In this document: positions 1 through 21,569 of the stretch, piece after piece
How positions within the stretch are numbered: position 1 is the stretch's first letter
Layout: every line of letters starts with the position of its first letter
Source: an uncultured Bacilli bacterium
GTDB taxonomy: Bacteria > Bacillota_I > Bacilli_A > RF39 > UBA660
NCBI GenBank assembly: GCA_947598395.1
Contig: CANQFG010000002.1
Coordinates: 7,813 to 71,812, forward strand
Reading direction: 5' to 3'
Length of the DNA: 64,000 bases
Translations under genes and position numbers: made by a program
The notes under the pieces: generated by a model
The model's database searches: none
The model's input: the letters and a program-made list of their open reading frames with translations, nothing else
What the model was told of the DNA's origin: nothing

Positions 1-1124
1 TAATTTTAAATGATGGTGAAGTAGCACCAGAAGATAATAAGCCAATAGATATGAATAAGATAGCCTCGATGTTTGTATGGATACCTAAATATAAATATCG
101 ATTATGGAATGTAAATGTAACTAATCCATTATATACAGTGCATTCTATAGAAATAGAATTTGATAAAAATGATACTGAAGACGTAGAAGGAGTATCATGT
201 GAAACACCAATGGAAAGTGGAGATACAGGTAATTGTGATAATGGAGAGTATATGACACATCCTGCATTTAAATCATTTGGTGTAGATGGTTTTTGGGTTG
301 GTAAATTTGAAACCGGATACAAAGATGCTAGTAATGCTGATGCTGCCAATCAAATTACTGGTACATCAACTGATATAGTTGTTAAACCAGATGAATATTC
401 ATGGCGGGGAGCGAATATTAAAACTTTTTTTACTGCCGCAAAAGGCTATGATGCAAACTTAGATTCACATATGATGAAGAATACAGAATGGGGAGCAGTA
501 GCCTACCTTTCACATTCCATCTTTGGAATAAACAAAGAAATTACAATAAATAATAATAATCAATTTAAAACAGGATATGCTGCATTATCCAGTACTAATC
601 AAAGTAAATATCCTGGCGAAGGTGGAGACGGATCAAATTATAATACTAAATGGAACACGACGAATGGATTTACAGCCAGTACCACGGGAAATACAACCGG
701 TATATATGATATGAGTGGCGGGTCTTGGGAATACATGGCAGCTTATGTTGAGAATACCCTAGGTGGCAGTGGGTTTGCTTCTGAATCAGATGGAATGGAT
801 ACTTTAAAAAAATATTTTGATGTATATAAGAGTGATAGTAATGATACTTCTTATACTAATATGATATTAGGAGATGCTACTGGCGAGATGGGACCATTTA
901 AAAATTTTGCTGATAGTGATAACACTAATAGGTATCATAATAGTTGGTATATGGATAGTTCGTATTTTGTTAGCTCCACACAACCGTGGTTTAATCGCGG
1001 TGGCAGCAGTGCTGATGGCTATCTTGGTGGTCAATTTCATTTTTCTCGTCGTTCGGGTTCAGATAAAAGTAACTCAAGTAATCAAAATCAGAGTTTCCGT
1101 CTCGTACTTGCTCCATCTAATTAA
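1..1124 (+). CDS. 3' part of a long family paralog; FGE-sulfatase/SUMF1-like (C-type-lectin-fold) domain; ORF open to the left window edge
   Basis: Frame 3 is open from nt 3 (ILNDGEVAPEDNKPID precedes the tracked Met at 51). It aligns block for block with the C-terminal ~350 aa of the 19794..21569 product (WIPKYKY, GEYMTHPAF, WVGKFETGYK, HMMKNTEWGAVAYLSHSIFGINKE, YDMSGG.WE, ILGDATGEMGPF, FRL.LAPSN). The motif order mirrors FGE-sulfatase domains (fW.gKyEvT / EWEyAA / yDMsGNvWEW / RGGs / GFR). Confidence 0.75.
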   Translation, partial: ILNDGEVAPEDNKPIDMNKIASMFVWIPKYKYRLWNVNVTNPLYTVHSIEIEFDKNDTEDVEGVSCETPMESGDTGNCDNGEYMTHPAFKSFGVDGFWVGKFETGYKDASNADAANQITGTSTDIVVKPDEYSWRGANIKTFFTAAKGYDANLDSHMMKNTEWGAVAYLSHSIFGINKEITINNNNQFKTGYAALSSTNQSKYPGEGGDGSNYNTKWNTTNGFTASTTGNTTGIYDMSGGSWEYMAAYVENTLGGSGFASESDGMDTLKKYFDVYKSDSNDTSYTNMILGDATGEMGPFKNFADSDNTNRYHNSWYMDSSYFVSSTQPWFNRGGSSADGYLGGQFHFSRRSGSDKSNSSNQNQSFRLVLAPSN

Positions 1125-5417: not shown

Positions 5418-7169
5418 ATGGATAATAAAAAGAAGGGTTTTACTTTAATTGAGTTATTAGCTGTTATTATAATCTTAGCTTTGATAATGGTTATAGCTGT
5501 TCCTGCGGTTTTAGAGACGATGCGATCAGCACAAAAAGAATCGTTATATCTCTATGCGCAAAGTTTGCAATCGAAGGCCATCGCGAGATATACGCAAGAT
5601 CTCGATATGAATAAGGAAAATACGGATTGTGCTGTTTACGATATTTCCAAGAATTTGGATCTATCGGGAACCGGCGATTATGAGGGCTGGGTCAAAGTCA
5701 GTCGGACGCCAACTAATTCGGGTAAACGGACGGCGCGCATCGAACTAAGTCATTCCGATACATTGCGCTATGTCAAATACTGCGTAGCTAAAGGTAGCTC
5801 TTGTACGCCCAATACCGCTTTTAATGCGGGCGAGGATAATAAAAAGGCCGTTATCGAAAGAAGTCTTGAAGCGGGCGAAGTCCTTTGTGCCAATTATCAA
5901 TATGCCGATAGCAATAAAGTCTTAAAGACGGCAGACACCCAATGTGTAACATACGATAAGGGGACGACGCTCAACGATACTTATACCTATAATGTCAATG
6001 TAACTTTAAAAGATGATACGTATGCGGTCGAAAATGTCCTCTTTAAAGAGGATATGTCCCGCGATGAATTCTTTGCGGCGATCGAAGACTATAATCAAAA
6101 ACATAAAAATGATGCCAATAAGTTAGCTATTGCCTCGCCTAGTTGTACGGCCGAGGAAAGTGTCAAGGGAACGACAACGCGAGGAACGACGGAAGTTACC
6201 AATAATGAGGCGACGACGCGAGGAACGACGGAGGCGTCAAGTAAGACGACATCGACGCGTTCGACGAATGTCATCGATCCAAGCAGCAACACGACAAGGG
6301 GCACGAGTGAGGTCATCACCAGTTCCTCGACGACGCGGGCGACGACGACCGAGACGACCACGACGATCAATGTCGAAGATCGGAGCTTATTACTCACGAG
6401 TTTGAATATTGCTGGCTATAACATTAACTTCGACCCTCTCAAATTTTACTATACCCTCGATGTACCATATAATGTCACGAATTTAAATATCAGTGCTACG
6501 GCCGAGCGACCTGATGTAAGCGTCGTTCAAGTAGCCGGAAATGATTACTTAGGTGTCGGCGATAATCCCGTAATCGTCACTGTCTTTAATCAAACGACGG
6601 GCGCCAAAGCCAATTATCGCATCAACGTCACGCGCTTCAATGAAACTGGAGTACGGCCAACGAGTCCAACTAATCCAATCGTCGATCCAAACAATAACGA
6701 AGAAGGTAAACCGGATCCAACAATTGAAGAGAGTAATGCGGCTCTTGCCTATTTGGCGATATCTGGATATGACCTCGACTTCGATCCTGATGTCTACGAA
6801 TACACATTGACGACCAAGGGCGAAAGTAAATTATATGTCAATTATCGTGCAGCCAGTGAAAATGCCGTCGTAGCTCTTTATGGCAATGAAGAAGTCAAAG
6901 ATGGCGGCGAAATAACCCTCTTCGTTCAAAGTGAAAATGGCTACTATAATAAGACCTATAAGATTAAGATTCAATTTGAACAAGTTGCCTCGACGGGAAC
7001 AAAAGTCCTAAGGGGAGTTGCCGTTGGCTTGGGCGTCTTGCTCATAATTCTTTTGATAATAATCAGTTTAAATAAGAAAAAGCGCAGTAATAATAATTCG
7101 GATACGGTTGAAGACAAAGAAAATAATTCGGAACCAGATAATAACTCGACGAATGCGAATAGTGTGTAA
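5418..7169 (+). CDS. prepilin-type N-terminal domain protein fused to a Thr-rich linker, two cadherin-like beta-sandwich domains and a C-terminal TM anchor
   Basis: MDNKKKG|FTLIELLAVIIILALIMV is a class III (type IV pilin) signal with Glu at +5. Two domains begin LLTSLNIAGYNINFDP..YYTL and LAYLAISGYDLDFDP..YEYTL (cadherin-like beta-sandwich pattern). The C-terminus GVAVGLGVLLIILLIIISLNKKKR is a TM segment plus a basic stop-transfer. Confidence 0.8.
   Translation: MDNKKKGFTLIELLAVIIILALIMVIAVPAVLETMRSAQKESLYLYAQSLQSKAIARYTQDLDMNKENTDCAVYDISKNLDLSGTGDYEGWVKVSRTPTNSGKRTARIELSHSDTLRYVKYCVAKGSSCTPNTAFNAGEDNKKAVIERSLEAGEVLCANYQYADSNKVLKTADTQCVTYDKGTTLNDTYTYNVNVTLKDDTYAVENVLFKEDMSRDEFFAAIEDYNQKHKNDANKLAIASPSCTAEESVKGTTTRGTTEVTNNEATTRGTTEASSKTTSTRSTNVIDPSSNTTRGTSEVITSSSTTRATTTETTTTINVEDRSLLLTSLNIAGYNINFDPLKFYYTLDVPYNVTNLNISATAERPDVSVVQVAGNDYLGVGDNPVIVTVFNQTTGAKANYRINVTRFNETGVRPTSPTNPIVDPNNNEEGKPDPTIEESNAALAYLAISGYDLDFDPDVYEYTLTTKGESKLYVNYRAASENAVVALYGNEEVKDGGEITLFVQSENGYYNKTYKIKIQFEQVASTGTKVLRGVAVGLGVLLIILLIIISLNKKKRSNNNSDTVEDKENNSEPDNNSTNANSV
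6165..6370 (+). repeat. Thr/Arg/Ser-rich low-complexity coding repeat (TTRGTTE units)
   Basis: ACG/ACGACG-rich stretch encoding GTTTRGTTE..ATTRGTTE..NTTRGTSE..TTRATTTETTTT. It also creates the spurious overlapping ORFs 6095..6397(-) and 6130..6405(+). Confidence 0.8.
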
Positions 7170-7206
7170 GAAACGTGAAAATTCCCGAATATGTTTATAA
7201 AGAGTA

Positions 7207-7235
7207 TTGACTAAAGAAAAGATAAAATATATAAT
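7207..7235 (+). promoter_or_regulatory. sigma-A type promoter (TTGACT-17-TATAAT)
   Basis: TTGACT at 7207-7212, a 17-nt spacer, and TATAAT at 7230-7235. Confidence 0.65.
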
Positions 7236-7259
7236 TTAAGTATGATAGAAAGAGGATTT

Positions 7260-7793
7260 ATGATGAAGAAGAAAAATGGTTTTACATTAGTAGAATTACT
7301 AGCGGTTATCGTCATATTAGCAATTATAATGGTCATTGCCATTCCTGCCGTATTAGATGTTATGAACCGTTCAAGAAAAAGTGCATTTGTGCTCTATGCG
7401 CAAAAGGTTATTCGTGATACAAAAACTCAATATTCCTATGATGCTGGTTTAGGAGCAGCAACGGGAGCGGGATACTTTGTATACAGTATTGTCGATGATT
7501 TAGATTATGATTCGACTGGTGATTATCAAGGGTATGTCGTCGTCAATGCTACTAACGTTGATAAACCAGAATATATATTATTCTTATATGATAATAATTA
7601 TATGATTTTAAATTATAATGTAACTGATTTTGGAATGCCGACGACAAGTGATAGTGCCATTCAAGCTTATTCGGCAAGTGCTGTTGGAACGCAAGCTAAT
7701 AATGCTAAAGATGCTTGTACAGCAGCGGGAGCTGTCGGTGGTGTCGAATGTTATAATCGCGATGGTTTCGTAATTGTTAAAAAGGATGAATAA
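7260..7793 (+). CDS. prepilin-type N-terminal cleavage/methylation domain protein (small pilin/pseudopilin-like)
   Basis: MMKKKNG|FTLVELLAVIVILAIIMVIAIPAV. It shares post-helix blocks with the 5418 product (YAQK/YAQS, STGDYQGYVVV vs GTGDYEGWVKV). The ATG at 7260 follows AAGAGGA. Confidence 0.8.
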   Translation: MMKKKNGFTLVELLAVIVILAIIMVIAIPAVLDVMNRSRKSAFVLYAQKVIRDTKTQYSYDAGLGAATGAGYFVYSIVDDLDYDSTGDYQGYVVVNATNVDKPEYILFLYDNNYMILNYNVTDFGMPTTSDSAIQAYSASAVGTQANNAKDACTAAGAVGGVECYNRDGFVIVKKDE

Positions 7794-13177: not shown

Positions 13178-13720
13178 ATGGATTATATAGAAGAAACAGA
13201 ATTAAGCATGATGAAGGCTTTAGAAAATTTAGAAGCGCGTTTAATTACAGTTCGAGCTGGACGAGCTAATGCTAGTATGCTCAATGGGATTATGGTCGAT
13301 TATTATGGAACCCCAACGGCTATCAATGCCCTTGCCAACATTACCGTACCGGAAGCTCGGCAATTGTTTATTAAACCTTTCGATCGAAGTGCCTTAAAAG
13401 ATATCGAAAGAGCGATCAATGAGGCAAATATTGGTATTACACCTACTAATAATGGCGAAATTATTATTTTAACGATTCCTCAACTTACGGAAGAGACGCG
13501 TAGAAATTATGTCAAACAAGTTCATGAGATGGGTGAACAAGCTAAGGTAGCTTTACGCAATGCTCGGGCGAATGCCAATAATGCCATTAAAAAGGATGAA
13601 TCGTTAACCGAAGATAATGAAAAAGCCTTGATGAATGATATTCAAGATTTAATCAATGAATATAATAAAAAAGTCGATGAAATGATTAAAGAAAAGGAAA
13701 ATGAGTTAATGAGTGTTTAG
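13178..13720 (+). CDS. frr: ribosome recycling factor
   Basis: Full-length match to the RRF pattern (LITVRAGRANASMLNGIMVDYYGTPT..., IPQLTEETRRNYVK). Confidence 0.95.
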   Translation: MDYIEETELSMMKALENLEARLITVRAGRANASMLNGIMVDYYGTPTAINALANITVPEARQLFIKPFDRSALKDIERAINEANIGITPTNNGEIIILTIPQLTEETRRNYVKQVHEMGEQAKVALRNARANANNAIKKDESLTEDNEKALMNDIQDLINEYNKKVDEMIKEKENELMSV

Positions 13721-13853
13721 CTCGTTTTCTTTTTTAGAAAATAATTTGCTTAAACTATGTAAATCTTGTCAAATTAATTGACATTTTTGCTTGCCATTAT
13801 TGCATGAAGTAGGGCTTTTGGTTATACTAAAAAATATAGAATAGAGGTAAATT

Positions 13854-14486
13854 ATGACAAAGAAAACGACAAAAACAAATAGCAAAATACCCCAAAACCG
13901 AAAAATACGCGGGGGGGGGTCACATAGCTCATCTCGTGAAAAACAAAGAACAGGGATAGCTATTGCAATATTATTAATGGCCATTGGTTTCGCAGCCGTA
14001 ACGACGACATTGACGATCAATGGAACCATTAAATATGGATATGATAAGGACAAATTTATCGTAAAGTTTACTGCTGCAACATTAGATGAAACGGAAGCTG
14101 GTGAGGGTGTTGAAAATCCTAAGATCGATGAAAGTGGTCAATCGATAACTTATACGACTAAGGATTTAAAGACGATTGGTGAATCTAGTGTTTTGGATTT
14201 TACGGTTACCAACCAATCGACTCAATATGATGCCAGTGTAACAATTGAATGTAAAGAAAGTGACGCTGAATTACCTAAAACAAAGCTTGTTGATAGTTAT
14301 GTAACCCTTACTGAAAAGTTTGGTGAAGATGATGCTGAAACTCCGGTTACAATAACGGCCAATGGTGGAACCGCTAAAGGCAAAATTACAGTTACTTTAA
14401 TAAAAGCAACTACGGAAGCTAGGGATACGACATTTAAATGTACTCTAACTGCTACTCCAGTTGAAATAACTAGTCGAGCTAATTAA
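13854..14486 (+). CDS. family paralog 1 (small): basic tail + signal-anchor + two-Cys N-module
   Basis: SREKQR-TGIAIAILLMAIGFAAVTTTLTINGTIKYGYDKDKFIVKFT, ...YTTKDLKTIG.SSVL.FTVTN.STQYDASVTIEC..., ...FKCTLTATPVE. RBS GAGGT. Contains an in-frame G9. Confidence 0.8.
   Translation: MTKKTTKTNSKIPQNRKIRGGGSHSSSREKQRTGIAIAILLMAIGFAAVTTTLTINGTIKYGYDKDKFIVKFTAATLDETEAGEGVENPKIDESGQSITYTTKDLKTIGESSVLDFTVTNQSTQYDASVTIECKESDAELPKTKLVDSYVTLTEKFGEDDAETPVTITANGGTAKGKITVTLIKATTEARDTTFKCTLTATPVEITSRAN
13911..13919 (+). repeat. G9 homopolymer inside the CDS (codons 20-22, GGG GGG GGG)
   Basis: Read directly: cgc ggggggggg tca. G8 or G10 would produce stops within 3-16 codons, before the hydrophobic segment. 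Confidence 0.95.
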
Positions 14487-14554
14487 TATACTAATGATTA
14501 AATTATCATATCCATAAAAATGTATATCATTAATATTATGGAAGAGGTTAAATT

Positions 14555-15226
14555 ATGACAAAGAAAACTACAAAAAAATCGACAACTAAAAAAGCTCCAA
14601 TAACCCAAAAAGTAACAGGAGCAAGTAGACATAGTACATCACGTGAAAAACAAAGAATGGGGATTCTCATCGCCATTCTATTAATGGCAATCGGATTTGC
14701 CACGGTTACAACAACTTTAACAATTAATGGAACTATTAAATATGGATATGATAAAAATGACTTTATCGTAAAATTTACGCAAGCAGCAGTTGATGAAGTT
14801 GAATCAACAGCAAGTGAAGGAAATAAACCAACAATTGGTGATGATGGTAAGACAATCACATATACGACAAAAGATTTGAAATCATTAAATGATAAGAGTG
14901 TTTTGACATTTACTGTTTCAAATGGAAGTAGTCAATATGATGCTAGTGTTACTATATCTTGCGAAGCGGTAACTAATGCTGAAACCGAAGAAACCGAAAC
15001 AACGACGGCAGCAACTTCTAAAAACGTTAAGGATTATGTAACTGTTGAAGCAAAAATAAATGGTCAAACGGCTTCTGAAGCTGTTCAAATTGACGCAAAA
15101 GGTAATAAACAAGGAACAGTAACTGTTACTTTAAATAAAGTTTCCATCGACGAAATGACTGGTAAGGTAACTTGTAAACTAAATGCAACGCCAGTTGAAA
15201 GAAATAGCGCAGCTACTGGTGAATAA
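14555..15226 (+). CDS. family paralog 2 (small)
   Basis: Same architecture and motifs as 13854..14486 (SREKQRMGILIAILLMAIGFATVTTTLTINGTIKYGYDKNDFIVKFT; QYDASVTISC; VTCKLNATPVE). Confidence 0.8.
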   Translation: MTKKTTKKSTTKKAPITQKVTGASRHSTSREKQRMGILIAILLMAIGFATVTTTLTINGTIKYGYDKNDFIVKFTQAAVDEVESTASEGNKPTIGDDGKTITYTTKDLKSLNDKSVLTFTVSNGSSQYDASVTISCEAVTNAETEETETTTAATSKNVKDYVTVEAKINGQTASEAVQIDAKGNKQGTVTVTLNKVSIDEMTGKVTCKLNATPVERNSAATGE

Positions 15227-15253
15227 TCGTAAAAAGCAGATGGAGGAAATATT

Positions 15254-15889
15254 ATGGCACAAACGAATTCTAAAAAGAAAACGACAGCTAAAAATACTAA
15301 AACAAGAAAAATAACAAATAATAATCATAATACTTCTCGTGAAAAGCAAAGAACTGCTATTGCCATTGCCATTTTACTTATGGCCGTTGGCTTTGCAGCC
15401 GTTACGACAACATTAACAATAAATGGAACAATTAATTATGGATATGATAAAGATAAATTCATCGTTAAATTTACTGAAGCATCATTAGATGGCGTAAACT
15501 CGAACGACGTAGAAGAAGGTAAACCTACAATTGATTCTGAAGGACATACGATTACTTATACATCAAAAGAATTAAAGACGATAAATGAAGAAAGTGTGTT
15601 AACTTTTAAGGTTCAAAATCAATCAACCCAATATGATGCTACTGTTAATATTAAATGTGAAGAAGTTGATGATCGTGGTGAGAATTCTACTACAAAATTA
15701 GTTAATAAATACATTACTCTTAATGGAAAACTCGGTGAAAATGAGCAACCTACTAGGATTGATGCTGGTAGTACTGCTGATGGTACAGTAACCGTTAAAT
15801 TGATTAAAGCTACTGTTGATGAACAAAGTACAAATATCAAGTGTACTTTAGAGGCTACGCCATTAGAAAGAACATCATCAACTCAATAG
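15254..15889 (+). CDS. family paralog 3 (small)
   Basis: Same architecture (SREKQRTAIAIAILLMAVGFAAVTTTLTINGTINYGYDKDKFIVKFT; QYDATVNIKC; IKCTLEATPLE). RBS GGAGG. Confidence 0.8.
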   Translation: MAQTNSKKKTTAKNTKTRKITNNNHNTSREKQRTAIAIAILLMAVGFAAVTTTLTINGTINYGYDKDKFIVKFTEASLDGVNSNDVEEGKPTIDSEGHTITYTSKELKTINEESVLTFKVQNQSTQYDATVNIKCEEVDDRGENSTTKLVNKYITLNGKLGENEQPTRIDAGSTADGTVTVKLIKATVDEQSTNIKCTLEATPLERTSSTQ

Positions 15890-15892
15890 TAT

Positions 15893-15912
15893 AGAGCATA
15901 TGCTCTTTTTTT
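15893..15912 (+). terminator. rho-independent terminator after the paralog triplet
   Basis: AGAGCA/TGCTCT palindrome followed by a T run. Confidence 0.6.
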
Positions 15913-15931
15913 ATAAAATAAAACCATTAGT

Positions 15932-16117
15932 TTACGAATTACTAATGGTTCTAATTAAATAATATACTAGTGGAGCTAGGAAAGATGCTAGCATTGCTAT
16001 AAACATAAACCAGATAAATACTTTAGTTATAAAGGGAGTATCACTGGTTTTTTTCTTTTTTGATTTATGTTTCTTTTGGGCAATTTTTATATTTCCAACT
16101 TCATTTTTATCATCCAT
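15932..16117 (-). CDS. small membrane protein, unknown function
   Basis: The ATG at 16117 lies 8 nt after GGTGA. Lys-rich N-terminus followed by one TM (VFIWFMFIAMLASFLAPLVYYLI). Confidence 0.5.
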   Translation of the reverse strand: MDDKNEVGNIKIAQKKHKSKKKKTSDTPFITKVFIWFMFIAMLASFLAPLVYYLIRTISNS

Positions 16118-16197
16118 AATATTTATCACCTATCTAAAATTATATCTTAAATGTCATATAAAATAAAGATAAAAATATATTTAAATAGGTGAGAATT

Positions 16198-16743
16198 GTG
16201 AAAAATAATCGTCATATTATTATCTTTGTAAGTATTTTAGTAATAGCCTCTATAATAACGGGATATATCTATGGAATTAATAATTATTATGATCTAACGG
16301 AATATATTAAACAATTGACGACTCATAATAATCAATTTTTACCACATATTGCTATTTTATGTGCCTTTTTATTTTCGACAATATCATTAGCAGGTATTAT
16401 CTTTGAAGTTATATATATTGGTTTTGAAAGTATAAGTATTGGTTATTTATTGGCAATATTTTATAGTAATTTTAAATTTAAGGGGATAATATTTAGTTTA
16501 GCAGTTATTGGAATTAATAAACTTTTCTTTTTAATTATCTTATTTTATTTATTCTATGTAAGTTGTCATTATATACGTAAGAGTATTAGAAATATATTAG
16601 GTATGAATAAAGATTATATTGAAGTAGTTACTAAACCATTATTACTTAAATATGCTATTATGTTTGGTTTTTTAATTATCTATGATCTATTTGTCTATCT
16701 TTTTGGCAATAATATTTTAAATTATTTGACTTTTATGCTATAA
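16198..16743 (+). CDS. polytopic membrane protein (possibly SpoIIM/DUF95-like, tentative)
   Basis: 4-5 predicted TM segments. The GTG at 16198 follows AGGTGA. Start uncertain (the tracked start 16189 lies inside the RBS). Confidence 0.45.
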   Translation: MKNNRHIIIFVSILVIASIITGYIYGINNYYDLTEYIKQLTTHNNQFLPHIAILCAFLFSTISLAGIIFEVIYIGFESISIGYLLAIFYSNFKFKGIIFSLAVIGINKLFFLIILFYLFYVSCHYIRKSIRNILGMNKDYIEVVTKPLLLKYAIMFGFLIIYDLFVYLFGNNILNYLTFML

Positions 16744-16765
16744 TGCCTTTTGGAAGTGGTTCTTT

Positions 16766-17875
16766 ATGGCTAAAAAGGTCGTTGTTGGGATGTCAGGGGG
16801 CGTTGATTCATCAGTTGCCGCTTATCTTTTAATTAAAGAGGGTTATGAAGTAATAGGTTTATTTATGCGGAACTGGGACAGCATGTTAAATAATGATATT
16901 GAAGGTAATCCCAATTTAGGAAATAATATTTGTCCTCAAGAACAAGATTATAATGATGCTTTGGCGGTCTGTGAAAAATTGGGTATTCCTCTATATCGTG
17001 TTGATTTTATTAAAGAATATTGGGATAATGTCTTTACTTATTTTTTAGATGAATTAAAAAAGGGAAGAACGCCTAATCCCGATTTGATGTGTAATAAATA
17101 TATTAAATTTGATTCTTTTATTAAGGAAGCAAGAAAACTGGGTGCTGATTATATAGCTACGGGTCATTATGCCCGAATTAAAGGTTGTAAATTATATCGA
17201 GGGATAGATAGTAATAAGGATCAATCGTACTTTTTGGCGCAATTGGCACCTGATCAATTAAAGGATGTCTTATTTCCTGTAGGAGATTTAAAAAAGGAAG
17301 AGGTACGGGAAATTGCTGAGTCTTTGGATTTGATAACGGCTAAGAAAAAGGATTCGACGGGTATATGTTTTATTGGAGAGCGTAATTATCAAAAGTTTAT
17401 TCAAAATTATTTAAAACCTAATCCTGGTGATATTATCAATGTCGATACGTTAGAAGTAATTGGCAAACATAGTGGACTTATGAATTATACGATTGGGCAA
17501 CGAAGAAATGTAGGCGTAAGTGGTTTTCAATATAAGCATTTTGTCGTTGGTAAGAATGTCAAAGATAATATTTTATATGTTGCTTTTGGCGATGATCCTG
17601 AGACATTGTATTCCGATGAGTGTATTATCGATAATGTCAATTTTATATCACCTAATCATCCGGCTTTTTGTACGGCAAAGTTCCGTTATCGAGGACCTGA
17701 TAATGAAGTAATGCTCGAATATCTTGACAATAATGAAATACGCGTCCGTTATCCTCAAAAAGTTAAAGCAGTTACTCCTGGGCAAGCATGTGTTTTATAT
17801 TTAGGAGAGCAATGTTTAGGCAGTGGCATTATCAAAGAAGTTCGCAAAAATAATGAAAAATTATGGTATCTATAA
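16766..17875 (+). CDS. mnmA: tRNA 2-thiouridine(34) synthase
   Basis: VVVGMSGGVDSSVAAYLL PP-loop, DQSYFL, and a full-length MnmA pattern. Confidence 0.95.
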   Translation: MAKKVVVGMSGGVDSSVAAYLLIKEGYEVIGLFMRNWDSMLNNDIEGNPNLGNNICPQEQDYNDALAVCEKLGIPLYRVDFIKEYWDNVFTYFLDELKKGRTPNPDLMCNKYIKFDSFIKEARKLGADYIATGHYARIKGCKLYRGIDSNKDQSYFLAQLAPDQLKDVLFPVGDLKKEEVREIAESLDLITAKKKDSTGICFIGERNYQKFIQNYLKPNPGDIINVDTLEVIGKHSGLMNYTIGQRRNVGVSGFQYKHFVVGKNVKDNILYVAFGDDPETLYSDECIIDNVNFISPNHPAFCTAKFRYRGPDNEVMLEYLDNNEIRVRYPQKVKAVTPGQACVLYLGEQCLGSGIIKEVRKNNEKLWYL

Positions 17876-17876
17876 A

Positions 17877-17898
17877 CGTCGATTATTCGACGCTTTTT
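17877..17898 (+). terminator. rho-independent terminator of mnmA
   Basis: CGTCG (17877-81) pairs with CGACG (17888-92), followed by CTTTTT. Confidence 0.6.
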
Positions 17899-17970
17899 AT
17901 GTTGAAAAAAATGCAACTGGGGGGGGGTGCAATACAATAGAGAAAATGGAAAATAGGAGCAGAGATTGAC
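17899..17970 (+). promoter_or_regulatory. conserved leader/promoter element, copy A (contains G9 and a TACAAT box)
   Basis: 72 nt nearly identical to 19723..19793. TTGAAA at 17902-07, G9 at 17919-27, TACAAT at 17933-38, AGGAG at 17955-59. Confidence 0.6.
17919..17927 (+). repeat. G9 homopolymer 43 nt upstream of the start codon
   Basis: Read directly: actg ggggggggg tgcaaTACAAT. Confidence 0.95.
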
Positions 17971-19359
17971 ATGAAAAAGAGATGGATACTAGTAACTATA
18001 TTATTTCTTAGTATTGGATTTGCATCCGTAACAGCAGTCTTAACGATAACCGGAAAAGTAAATATAAACTTTGATGACGAAGATTATCAAGTATACTTTT
18101 CCGATGCTTATTTAGATGATGTAAGACATATGGAATTTATTGATGATACGAGAAAGAAAATAACATTCACAACTAATGCCTTAACCTCAGTAGGCGATAC
18201 AAGTATTTTAAAATATGAAGTAACGAATAATAGTAAACAATATGATGCGGAAGTAAGTGTCGAATGTACGCCAAGTGAAACTGACTATTATAGTGTAAGT
18301 AATAGTTTAACAGAAAGAATAAATGCGCAAAGTCGAGAAAGTGGAACGATAACTATTGAGTTAAAGAAAGTTGTGTTAGAGGAAACAGAAGAAACATTTA
18401 CTTGTAATCTAACAATAAATGCTACGTCGAGAGAAGATGTAGAAGAATCATTGCTATGTGAAAATGAAATAAATCATATTTGGAATTTTGATTATACAGG
18501 AGGAGAACAAGAATTTATCCCTGACTGTGCAGGAAATTATAAATTAGAAGTATGGGGAGCACAAGGAGGAATTGATACTACTTCGTCTTTTACTTTTCAA
18601 GGTTATGGTGGCTATGCCATAGGAAATGTAAAATTAGAAGCCAATCAACGAATATATATCAATGTTGGAGGACAAGGAGAAGGTTACACTGGAGTAGGAG
18701 AAAAAATAAATCGTGACTATAAAGGCGGTTATAATGGAGGTGGAAATGGTGGATCTAAAAGTTCTCAATATGGCTTTGGCGGAGGTGGAGCAACGCATAT
18801 CGCTTTAGAAATGGGATTGCTCAGTGAATTTGAAAGTAAAAAAGAAAATCTTTTAATCGTTGCTGGAGGTGGCGGTGGAAATTCTTCTTATGAAAATAAA
18901 GTGTTTGGGGGCTCTGGAGGTGGAATCCAAGGCGGTAATGGGAATAATATTGTTGTTAATTCTGCTGACCGCTACTATGGAACAGGTGGAACTCAAGAAC
19001 AAGGTGGAGATGATAGTACTAGTGGTTTTCAAAATGATCGTGCTTTAGGAACATTCGGTCAAGGAGGAATCTATTATCGCGATCCATATAAAGAGTTTAA
19101 CTATGTTAGTGGTGCTGGAGGCGGAGGCGGTTACTATGGCGGAGGCGGAAGTTCTCGTGGGCATGCCAGTGCCGGTGGTGGATCTGGTTATATTGGAAAT
19201 GATTTATTAAGTGAAAAAGCTATGTACTGCTATAATTGTGAACCCAATGGAGAAGTAAAAACGAAAACGATTACTACCGAAAGTTTTAGTCAAGAAGCTC
19301 AAAGTATGTTTGCCAAACAAGGCAATGGGTATGCTAGAATAACTTATTTAGGAAAATAA
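17971..19359 (+). CDS. family paralog 4 (long): signal-anchor + two-Cys N-module + ALK/LTK-type glycine-rich domain
   Basis: MKKRWILVTILFLSIGFASVTAVLTITGKVNINF; QYDAEVSVEC; FTCNLTINA. The C-terminal part reads YKLEVWGAQGG..GYGGYAIGNV..IYINVGGQG..GGGGATHIAL..LLIVAGGGGG..GGSGGGIQGG..SGAGGGGGYYGGGG..AGGGSGYIG (bacterial glycine-rich domain pattern). Confidence 0.8.
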   Translation: MKKRWILVTILFLSIGFASVTAVLTITGKVNINFDDEDYQVYFSDAYLDDVRHMEFIDDTRKKITFTTNALTSVGDTSILKYEVTNNSKQYDAEVSVECTPSETDYYSVSNSLTERINAQSRESGTITIELKKVVLEETEETFTCNLTINATSREDVEESLLCENEINHIWNFDYTGGEQEFIPDCAGNYKLEVWGAQGGIDTTSSFTFQGYGGYAIGNVKLEANQRIYINVGGQGEGYTGVGEKINRDYKGGYNGGGNGGSKSSQYGFGGGGATHIALEMGLLSEFESKKENLLIVAGGGGGNSSYENKVFGGSGGGIQGGNGNNIVVNSADRYYGTGGTQEQGGDDSTSGFQNDRALGTFGQGGIYYRDPYKEFNYVSGAGGGGGYYGGGGSSRGHASAGGGSGYIGNDLLSEKAMYCYNCEPNGEVKTKTITTESFSQEAQSMFAKQGNGYARITYLGK

Positions 19360-19400
19360 AAAAACTTGCTAAGCAAGAGTAAATTTAATATAATGAATGT

Positions 19401-19464
19401 AGGAGGACTTAAGTCAGTTAAGTCGCCTATATTGTATAAGCTACCTTAAAAGGTAGTTTTTTTT
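19401..19464 (+). ncRNA. possible small RNA convergent with the mini-ORF (speculative)
   Basis: TTGCTA-17-TATAAT (19366..19394) lies immediately after the 17971 CDS stop. No start codon follows the AGGAGG at 19401. It ends at the hairpin CTACCT/AGGTAG plus T8 (19441..19464), which overlaps the stop codon of the minus-strand mini-ORF. Confidence 0.25.
19441..19464 (+). terminator. rho-independent terminator
   Basis: CTACCT (19441-46) pairs with AGGTAG (19451-56), followed by T8. Confidence 0.7.
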
Positions 19465-19537
19465 ATATTAGGCCTACAACGTAGAGCACTAAAATAAAAA
19501 TAATGATCAATAAGAAAGAAATAATAAAATCCTTCAT
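19463..19537 (-). CDS. 24-aa hydrophobic peptide MKDFIISFLLIIIFILVLYVVGLI (type I toxin-like)
   Basis: Not in the ORF track (under 60 aa). The ATG at 19537 lies 5 nt after GGAGGTGA (19543-19550, minus strand). A single TM-length hydrophobic core. A TATAAT box on the minus strand at 19637-19642 would give a ~90-nt structured leader. Confidence 0.4.
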   Translation of the reverse strand: MKDFIISFLLIIIFILVLYVVGLI

Positions 19538-19700
19538 TACTATCACCTCCACTACTTTCTATAGATTAAACTGGTCAACCAGCAACCCCCTGAAAATAAT
19601 GGCAACTACAAACTCAGTGGTCCTCCTGAGGGTAATATTATAGATGGTAAAAAATAAAAGGAAATAGACCTGACAAAAAAAGACAAAAGATTTCAAAAAT

Positions 19701-19721
19701 GCCGTATTTTCGGCTTTTTTT
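19701..19721 (+). terminator. rho-independent terminator preceding leader copy B
   Basis: GCCG/CGGC hairpin followed by T7. Confidence 0.45.
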
Positions 19722-19722
19722 C

Positions 19723-19793
19723 ATGTTGAAAAAAATGCGACTGGGGGGGGTGCAATACAATAGAGAAAATGGAAAATAGGAGCAGAGATCGAC
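19723..19793 (+). promoter_or_regulatory. conserved leader/promoter element, copy B (contains G8 and a TACAAT box)
   Basis: Differs from copy A by 2 substitutions and the G-run length. TACAAT at 19756-61. Confidence 0.6.
19743..19750 (+). repeat. G8 homopolymer 43 nt upstream of the start codon
   Basis: Read directly: actg gggggggg tgcaaTACAAT. Confidence 0.95.
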
Positions 19794-21569
19794 ATGAAAA
19801 AAAGATGGGTATTATTAACTGTATTATTTTTAACTATTGGATTTGCATCAGTAGCAACAATACTAACAATAACGGGAAGAGTAAATATAAATTTTAATGA
19901 AGAAGATTATCAAATATACTTTAGTAAAGCTGTAGTAGATAGTATAGATAAGAGTTATGAAGTAATAGATCCAGATACGAGAAGGTCAATAAAATATTCA
20001 ACAAAAGATTTAAGTAAAGTAAGTGATACAAGTGTCTTGGAATATGAAGTAACAAATAATAGTACCCAATATGATGCAACAGTAGAGGTAGTATGTGAAG
20101 CAAAGACTGAAGATAAGGAAAAAGCTACTGAATATGTAACGATAACAAATGAAATGAAAAATAATACTATCAAAGCTCAGACGAGAGAAACTGGAACTGT
20201 AAGTGTTCAATTAAAGAAAGTAACAGTGGACCCAATTGATATAGAATTTACTTGTACATTAACAGTAAATCCTGTAGGAAATGATGTATTAAAAGAACCA
20301 GAATTAGCTGAGAATAGTTGTCGAGATATCGGAATACCAAGTTTGGGAGAAGGAGACAAATTAATACCGATAGTATTAGATGATGAAGGAAAAGCAACGC
20401 GAGTAGAGAAAACGGATACTAATTGGTATGACTATTGCAAGAGAGAATGGGCGAATGCGGTCATATTAAATGAAGATGCAGATTTACCAGATGTTGGTGA
20501 AGAAATACCAGAAGCATCAATCGAAAGTTATTTTGTGTGGATACCAAAATACAAATATAAATTATGGAATGTTGAAACAGATAATACAGAAGTTGGAAAA
20601 CATAGTATAGAAATAATATTTGATACGCAAGATACAACAAATGTTCCAGGAGAATCATGTGAAACACCAAAGACTAGTGGAAATATTGGAGATTGTAAAG
20701 ATGGCGAATATATGACGCACCCAGCATTTATCTCATTTGGCGTAGATGGCCTCTGGGTTGGTAAATTTGAAACGGGTTATAAAGGAGCAAACGATAAAAC
20801 AAGTGCTGAACAAGATAATAATGAATCAAGTCATATAATAATAAAACCAAATGCTTATTCATGGCGAAAGATTACTGTCAAAAATATTTTTGAAGCATCA
20901 AAAAAATATAAAGAAAATTTACAATCACATATGATGAAGAACACGGAATGGGGAGCAGTAGCCTATCTATCGCATTCGATATTTGGTATAAATAAAGAGG
21001 TAACGATAAATAACAATAATAAATATAAGACTGGATATGCGGCTTTACCTACTACAGATCAAAGTAAAAATCCTGGTGAAGAAGGTGATGATGGAAATTC
21101 TAATACAGCATGGAATACTCAAAATGGAGTTACAGCTAGTACGACGGGAAATATTACTGGTGTTTATGATATGTCTGGTGGAGCATGGGAGATTATGGCG
21201 GCTTATGTAGCAGAAGTTCCAAATGATCAAAGTGGATTTCAAGCTGAAGAATTGAAAAAAATAGATGCAAGATATGTTGATGTATATGAAAAAACAAGTA
21301 CAGGAATATCGTATGGAAAAATGATCTTAGGTGATGCCACGGGAGAAATGGGGCCTTTCGATAATTATGAAGATGGAGATAAAATAACAAGAGGGCACAA
21401 TCGTTGGTATGCCGACGTTTCTGTTTTCATTTACGCTTTGTCCCCTTGGTTCGGACGAGGCAGCTATAGCGGCGGCGGAGTTGTAGCTGGACAGTTCTAC
21501 TTCGATAGGTCCGCTGGTGCAGCCCGTGGAGGCGATGGCTTTCGCCTCGCTTTAGCTCCATCTAATTAA
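19794..21569 (+). CDS. family paralog 5 (long): signal-anchor + two-Cys N-module + linker + FGE-sulfatase-like domain
   Basis: MKKRWVLLTVLFLTIGFASVATILTITGRVNINF; QYDATVEVVC; FTCTLTVNP. The C-terminal ~350 aa is homologous to the partial ORF 1..1124. Confidence 0.8.
   Translation: MKKRWVLLTVLFLTIGFASVATILTITGRVNINFNEEDYQIYFSKAVVDSIDKSYEVIDPDTRRSIKYSTKDLSKVSDTSVLEYEVTNNSTQYDATVEVVCEAKTEDKEKATEYVTITNEMKNNTIKAQTRETGTVSVQLKKVTVDPIDIEFTCTLTVNPVGNDVLKEPELAENSCRDIGIPSLGEGDKLIPIVLDDEGKATRVEKTDTNWYDYCKREWANAVILNEDADLPDVGEEIPEASIESYFVWIPKYKYKLWNVETDNTEVGKHSIEIIFDTQDTTNVPGESCETPKTSGNIGDCKDGEYMTHPAFISFGVDGLWVGKFETGYKGANDKTSAEQDNNESSHIIIKPNAYSWRKITVKNIFEASKKYKENLQSHMMKNTEWGAVAYLSHSIFGINKEVTINNNNKYKTGYAALPTTDQSKNPGEEGDDGNSNTAWNTQNGVTASTTGNITGVYDMSGGAWEIMAAYVAEVPNDQSGFQAEELKKIDARYVDVYEKTSTGISYGKMILGDATGEMGPFDNYEDGDKITRGHNRWYADVSVFIYALSPWFGRGSYSGGGVVAGQFYFDRSAGAARGGDGFRLALAPSN

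Follow-up and report, generated by a model that had tools for sequence, protein, structure and literature searches.

The window (the whole stretch of 64,000 nucleotides that was analyzed, from an uncultured gut Bacilli bacterium) encodes a family of paralogous predicted surface proteins next to housekeeping genes (frr, mnmA, dnaG, rpoD). An N-terminal module is common to five open reading frames (ORFs), and a sixth member is partial (Table 1). Three small paralogs lie in tandem (13854..15889, forward strand), and two long paralogs follow the mnmA terminator. In an AlphaFold model of the N-terminal module (pLDDT 79), a transmembrane (TM) helix (residues 3-26) is followed by a seven-strand beta-sandwich. 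The module matches no family in Pfam or NCBIfam, and a fold search of the model against the PDB returns generic Ig-like sandwiches only, none at E ≤ 0.001. Exact-protein look-ups with the 462-aa, 591-aa and DnaG products and with P0122 returned no record, and literature searches turned up no account of this family or lineage. Predicted surface proteins are numerous around the family clusters. Among them are type IV pilin-like (N_methyl) proteins, one of which carries a Cadherin-like domain, and another Cadherin-like protein (L008:1565-3940, corresponding to window ~5418-7793; L003:9936-10227). In the 435-nt gap between the long paralogs, a small hydrophobic ORF on the reverse strand (MKDFIISFLLIIIFILVLYVVGLI, 19463-19552), with a GGAGG ribosome-binding site, might encode a small membrane peptide.

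Table 1. Genes and sequence features of the paralog family in the window, followed by the cassette copies on other contigs of the same organism
Feature	Position	Strand	Remarks
Further paralog, 3' part	3..1124	+	Same C-terminal lectin-like domain as the 591-aa protein; cut by window start
Small paralog 1, 210 aa	13854..14486	+	Shared N-terminal module; carries the in-frame G9
In-frame G9	13911..13919	+	In the cytoplasmic tail (RGGGS) of small paralog 1
Small paralog 2, 223 aa	14555..15226	+	Shared N-terminal module; no tract
Small paralog 3, 211 aa	15254..15889	+	Shared N-terminal module; no tract
Intrinsic terminator of mnmA	17877..17898	+	Stem-loop 17877-17892 and T run; terminator scan
Promoter/leader cassette, copy A	17899..17970	+	ATGTTGAAAAAAATGCAACT-G9-TGCAATACAAT...AGGAG...; downstream gene 462 aa
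Putative weak -35 ATGCAA, copy A	17911..17916	+	By alignment with relatives' TTGCAA/TTGAAA; spacer 16 nt at G9
Poly-G tract G9, copy A	17919..17927	+	Run scan; also G9 in L002; G8 in L001 and L163, both nearly identical to the window
-10 box TACAAT, copy A	17933..17938	+	TA..AT constant in 7/7 cassette copies
Shine-Dalgarno AGGAG, copy A	17955..17959	+	11 nt before ATG at 17971
Family gene, 462 aa	17971..19359	+	N-terminal TM helix, Ig-like beta-sandwich, C-terminal glycine-rich domain (PF12810, E = 5e-36)
Promoter/leader cassette, copy B	19723..19793	+	Same parts as copy A; downstream gene 591 aa
-35-like ATGCGA, copy B	19735..19740	+	Spacer 15 nt at G8
Poly-G tract G8, copy B	19743..19750	+	Spacer from ATGCGA to TACAAT 15 nt
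-10 box TACAAT, copy B	19756..19761	+	Coordinates by sequence look-up
Shine-Dalgarno AGGAG, copy B	19778..19782	+	11 nt before ATG at 19794
Family gene, 591 aa	19794..21569	+	Same N-terminal module and C-terminal lectin-like domain (weak FGE-sulfatase match)
Cassette L162			G8; downstream 207-aa variant of the copy A gene
Cassette L164			G9; downstream DGR target gene
Cassette L165a / L166a			G9; downstream gene 592 aa
Cassette L165b / L166b / L167b			G9; downstream gene 716 aa
Cassette L168			G8; downstream gene 598 aa

Each long paralog is preceded by a cassette of about 72 nt in which a poly-G tract is followed, after 5 nt (TGCAA), by a TACAAT box. The first-pass annotation had reported this arrangement, with G9 and G8 at the same position of a duplicated leader and a twin copy upstream of the second gene; its coordinates and the leader it quoted are exact. 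The two leaders are two substitutions and one G apart (97% identical over 72 nt), while the coding sequences behind them are about 80% identical at first and then diverge completely. Homology between the copies begins immediately 3' of the mnmA terminator, which is the 5' boundary of cassette A. Both leaders had been described as lying just after a terminator. This holds for copy A, where the terminator scan calls one, but not for copy B, which is preceded only by a weak 4-bp GC hairpin and T7 (19701-19722) that the scan does not call.

Are such tracts common in this DNA? In the whole 64 kb (37.5% GC), the only G or C runs of at least seven are those at 17919, 19743 and 13911, and all three are in coding-strand orientation at members of one gene family. 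Matches to G8 number five against 0.56 expected, and none of 100 shuffled sequences reaches five. An excess of repeat tracts concentrated in surface genes is a feature of contingency loci; here the tracts are concentrated in one TM-anchored Ig-like family.

The tract at 13911 lies within a coding sequence, that of the first tandem small paralog. Lengths of G6, G9 and G12 give the full protein (210 aa at G9), and G7, G8, G10 and G11 give products of 23-35 aa (by translation, 34 aa for G8 and 24 aa for G10). A change of one unit is thus a frameshift with truncation, as at intragenic SSR loci. No length polymorphism was found at this tract, which is G9 in every contig, only L001, L002 and L163 having been retrieved independently of an intact protein. 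Judged from its translation, this tract is a candidate switch of a second, translational kind.

Further contigs of the same organism, matching the window at 97-100% identity, come from one metagenome series (ENA ERZ27060145, ERZ27249440, ERZ27249446 and ERZ27249451; Logan ERR10663690-93). At least seven cassette copies were recovered from the same-organism contigs, with G8 or G9 only. In the alignment of the seven copies, the constant columns are a G8 core, T-GC-A after the tract, the T, A..A and T of the -10 box, and AAAATAG in the leader. The two middle bases of the -10 box vary (CA, GA, CG). A constant TA..AT with a variable middle is the pattern predicted by a sigma-70 -10 element. The -35 is weaker: the putative hexamers match TTGACA at three of six positions (copy A) and two of six (copy B), and there is no TGn extended -10. 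A consensus scan of the window does not call the cassette because its -35 is weak. With these elements, transcription from copy A would start at about 17945 and from copy B at about 19768. Two other boxes were considered and rejected, namely TTGAAA at 17902-17907 as the -35, which at 25 nt is too far from TACAAT, and TGCAAT as the -10, which is without A at position 2. In L165b and L168, the approximately 170 nt between cassette and gene hold a better canonical promoter (TTGTAA-17-TATAAT), and therefore the cassette cannot be the sole promoter there. The window-specific leader pattern has no match in the metagenome contig and viral contig collections.

The short-read contigs often break inside the 72-nt cassette, either at their 3' ends (L001, L002, L163) or at their 5' ends (L165, L166, L167, L161, L162). 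This is because the cassette is a dispersed repeat, which explains the recurrent contig breaks at family genes.

The one-G difference between the twins had been taken as fitting slippage, and the copy A tract itself agrees with this: it is G9 or G8 among contigs with 99.5-100% identical flanks, although all contigs of this organism have about 4x coverage and an assembly error might in principle account for a difference of one G. The contig L008, which includes L001, is 99.93% identical to the window over 14.1 kb, and the single gap is the tract. L163 is 99.5% identical to the window. In the same strain (L163:13650-13670), the A7 just 5' of the putative -35 (window 17905-17911) is A6, a second small homopolymer polymorphism of the cassette. 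A variant of the copy A gene was observed in two samples (L161:1-1005 and L162:1-705 against window 17907-18882), with 89-92% nucleotide identity and a frameshift before the glycine-rich domain that leaves 207 aa. In contrast, the 7 kb upstream are 99.96-100% identical (L001, L002). The variant reflects either a recombination or diversification hot spot behind the cassette or an eighth paralog.

Comparison with related loci, which the first-pass annotation had proposed, locates the tract much more clearly. A profile search with the N-terminal module identifies 28 loci in uncultured gut Bacilli MAGs (Hadza, CAG:582, mouse). These loci contain 10 G8 tracts against 0.3 expected (324 kb, approximately 28% GC), an excess of more than 30-fold. 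All ten share the layout cTTGAAAatc-G8-tattaTAAAAT and stand in front of a family gene or operon, at a distance of 25-35 nt from its start codon. The best promoter called there by the consensus scan is TTGAAA-16-TAAAAT, which spans the G8. The window cassette has the same geometry, with 5 nt after the tract and then TAnAAT, and a 16-nt spacer if ATGCAA is the -35 and the tract is G9. The earlier suggestion that the tract occupies the -35/-10 spacer is thus supported, both by the constant TA..AT of the seven copies and by the homologous tract inside the relatives' called promoter.

A pattern scan of metagenome contigs yielded 66 gut-derived copies, 59 after seven from the VOFC01 assembly were set aside. 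In VOFC01 (contigs L051, L057, L058, L069, L084, L117, L122), all family promoters have G5-G7, and the coding starts hold extra A's that would shift the frame. Since these poly-A indels suggest homopolymer errors, the short G runs are probably errors of a long-read assembly, real frameshift variation being the alternative. Most of the remaining copies carry C followed by G8 (45 of 59). The others are G7 (two), G9 (one), CC followed by G8 (one), G8 without C (one) and interrupted alleles such as CGAGGAGGGGG or CGGTGGGGG (nine). Tract length is strongly modal, and so there is only modest variation in the relatives' assemblies. The spacer is 16 nt in 46 copies, 15 in five, 17 in three and 18 in five; none falls outside 15-18 nt. 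Differing alleles (G7, G9 and interrupted) are found within clusters of genes at least 95% identical, so that lengths differ between close strains in the relatives as at copy A. A single metagenome, ERZ1673743, contains at least 12 such G-tract family promoters. In the mouse MAGs and in the closest relatives (L013, L014), the promoters are of the ordinary TTGxxx-N17-TATAAT type and contain no repeat.

One MAG, CAZWKF01, has a different homopolymer at this position. In six of its family genes, A16-A19 lies directly before (g/tgg/gtg)TAAAAT, and A17 and A19 are found in a pair of recent paralogs whose flanks are identical. The -35 may be TAGACA or TGCAAA, which would give a spacer of 17 nt at A17 and 19 nt at A19. 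The feature common to these promoters is therefore a homopolymer in the spacer and not a G-specific site.

We consider it likely that the poly-G tract in the cassette promoters is a slippage-prone promoter-spacer switch of each surface-protein gene. Each long paralog would have its own sigma-70-type promoter, in which the tract takes up the larger part of the spacer from a weak -35 to TACAAT. Slipped-strand mispairing during replication would add or remove one G, and the spacer would become 16 nt (G9) or 15 nt (G8), altering the phasing of the hexamers. Transcription of that single gene could then be switched or dialled in a heritable and reversible way. A change in tract length most likely alters promoter strength, separately at each cassette. 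The G9 copies are probably more active than the G8 copies, since G9 gives 16 nt, the modal spacer of the relatives, and G8 gives 15 nt. With every family member behind its own cassette and one carrying an in-frame G9, clonal cells may present different combinations of surface proteins; it is because the cassettes are separate, and an in-frame G9 is added to them, that a clonal population would make varied sets. The first-pass annotation had drawn this combinatorial idea from three poly-G switches. If anything this was an understatement, given at least seven cassettes plus the in-frame tract. From its sequence features, the system would be classed as homopolymer promoter phase variation: the tracts are enriched, they occupy the expected position (clearly so in the relatives, putatively in the window) and they are polymorphic in length.

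Might the tract instead be a fixed, sequence-specific promoter element, such as a regulator site or a structural spacer, whose length differences are incidental and switch nothing? The strongly modal G8 of the relatives would fit such an element, as would the fact that the seven copies keep both the tract and the TGCAA on either side of it. A CRP-like regulator is also involved at poly-G promoters in Treponema pallidum (PMC7864442). However, poly-A takes the place of poly-G in another species, CGAGGAGGGGG and CGGTGGGGG, of other lengths, replace G8 within clusters of nearly identical genes, and G8 and G9 differ between near-identical contigs. The same family also has the in-frame G9, where only mutability makes sense. 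We therefore regard a fixed element as unlikely.

Less probable still, and in our opinion quite doubtful, is that the tract is a neutral passenger of a recently duplicated or gene-converted 5' cassette, without a regulatory role. The close identity of the leaders in front of diverging genes fits recent conversion, and the contigs break in the cassette since it is a repeat. Against this, G8 or G9 is kept in the divergent cassettes L164 and L168, and tracts are kept in species whose family proteins are only 30-45% identical. A neutral hypermutable tract should decay in an AT-rich genome, whereas these tracts are more than 30-fold overrepresented.

Could the tract act after initiation, through an upstream ORF (uORF) or the leader RNA, by translational coupling or RNA polymerase slippage? 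The ATG at 17899 does open a uORF of 13-22 codons (MLKKMQLGGGAIQ and a stop), and its stop moves with tract length. This ATG is without a Shine-Dalgarno sequence, however, and lies directly after the terminator, with no promoter upstream of it in the consensus scan. The uORF is absent in the relatives and in L164 and L168, and the relatives' tract, being inside the promoter spacer, would be untranscribed. An N-terminal extension, with the tract fusing the uORF to the gene, was rejected. At tract lengths of 6-11, all frames from ATG 17899 are closed by a stop ahead of the gene in copy A; in copy B, no upstream ATG is fused in frame to the gene. The leader tracts have no coding role, because no length joins an upstream ATG to the ORF. 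Rfam covariance models give no match in the window at the gathering threshold, and at E ≤ 1 the only match in 13700-20000 is an unrelated chance match (17014-17070, E = 0.4). No tRNA or tmRNA gene was found in the window. A role after initiation thus seems to us very improbable. We give equally little credence to a sequencing or assembly artefact over stable tracts, for which the low coverage and the obvious homopolymer errors of the long-read-like VOFC01 assembly would speak, since dozens of independent Illumina assemblies show tracts at this same place in the promoter, and since copy A has G8 in two samples that are independent of each other (L001, L163), with G9 in two records.

Here we give an example where a cassette adjoins another system of variation. 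In L164:2063-4648 (ENA ERZ27249440 NODE_7689), a complete diversity-generating retroelement (DGR) adjoins a family paralog behind a G9 cassette. Between its variable region (VR, 2063-2220) and its template repeat (TR, 2388-2545) there are nine differences, every one at an adenine of the TR. The pair is followed by a MutS_I fragment, bAvd and a reverse transcriptase (RT). The 3' end of the 591-aa gene in the window (21408-21550) is homologous to the DGR VR and 75% identical to the L164 TR. As a DGR target this gene does not qualify: the window has no RT or Avd, 16 of the 36 mismatches to the L164 TR are at non-A positions (20 are at TR adenines), and three other samples carry the segment without any change. 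The segment seems to be an orphan or inactive VR, at present undiversified, because the window is without RT or Avd and the segment is invariant across samples. In L164, phase variation may be coupled with DGR diversification. If so, programmed surface variation in a commensal would have two tiers, independent of each other: an ON/OFF layer and hypermutation of the lectin domain.

It is tempting to see in these loci a Vlp-like contingency system of uncultured gut Bacilli, with a DGR-stacked second tier in L164. We propose this tentatively, its chances being somewhat short of even. Such a reading would bring together at least 7-12 genes per genome, anchored Ig-fold proteins, interchangeable C-terminal domains and portable homopolymer-spacer cassettes (poly-G or poly-A). 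Homopolymer promoter control appears to extend over a whole surface-protein family of uncultured human-gut Bacilli. The comparative signature is unusually clean, with the same position across species, a poly-A swap in one MAG and spacers of 15-18 nt. The cassettes are testable loci for population heterogeneity in metagenomes.

SSR phase variation is documented mainly in pathogens (Neisseria, Haemophilus, Campylobacter, Mycoplasma, Treponema), and the known switches of gut commensals are mostly invertible promoters. Among known systems, the vlp genes of M. hyorhinis, each with a poly-A tract in its promoter (Citti and Wise 1995, as quoted in PMC10502178), have several points of likeness to the present family. 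Both are multigene families of membrane-anchored surface proteins with a homopolymer in each gene's own promoter and a 5' region highly conserved between paralogs, and vlp has combinatorial ON/OFF expression. The A16-A19 before TAAAAT in CAZWKF01 is almost a copy of the vlp design. In contrast to vlp, the window uses poly-G, and the system is known here from sequence alone, in a lineage of uncultured gut Bacilli. The Vlp proteins are lipoproteins with repetitive C-termini, whereas those of the window have a TM helix, an Ig-like module and varied C-terminal domains.

In T. pallidum, the promoters of tpr genes and tp0126 carry poly-G of 7-12; that of tp0126 is placed between the -35 and the -10, with an optimum spacer of 17 nt, and tprL has one modal tract length with minority variants (PMC7864442). 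The likeness to the gut Bacilli lies in paralogous predicted surface proteins, promoter poly-G and a dominant modal length accompanied by minority variants. However, T. pallidum is a spirochaete with outer-membrane porins, and in tprE/G/J/L the tract is just 5' of the transcription start and not clearly in the spacer. In N. meningitidis, opc has a poly-C tract. The poly-G of porA in the same species lies between -35 and -10 (PMC7864442). In porA and opc, as may be the case here, a spacer homopolymer sets promoter strength, which makes it a volume control and not an on/off switch in the strict sense; in contrast to the present family, these are single genes of a Gram-negative pathogen, with no cassette common to a gene family. 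Intragenic poly-G is found in pilus genes of Bifidobacterium breve, a gut commensal using G-tract slippage (PMC9187656). The in-frame G9 at 13911, with its frameshift ON/OFF, resembles the intragenic tracts of B. breve and C. jejuni, whereas the two cassette tracts are noncoding and act, if at all, on transcription. Most likely, this is a known type of switch, newly found in a bacterial lineage and a gene family without earlier description.
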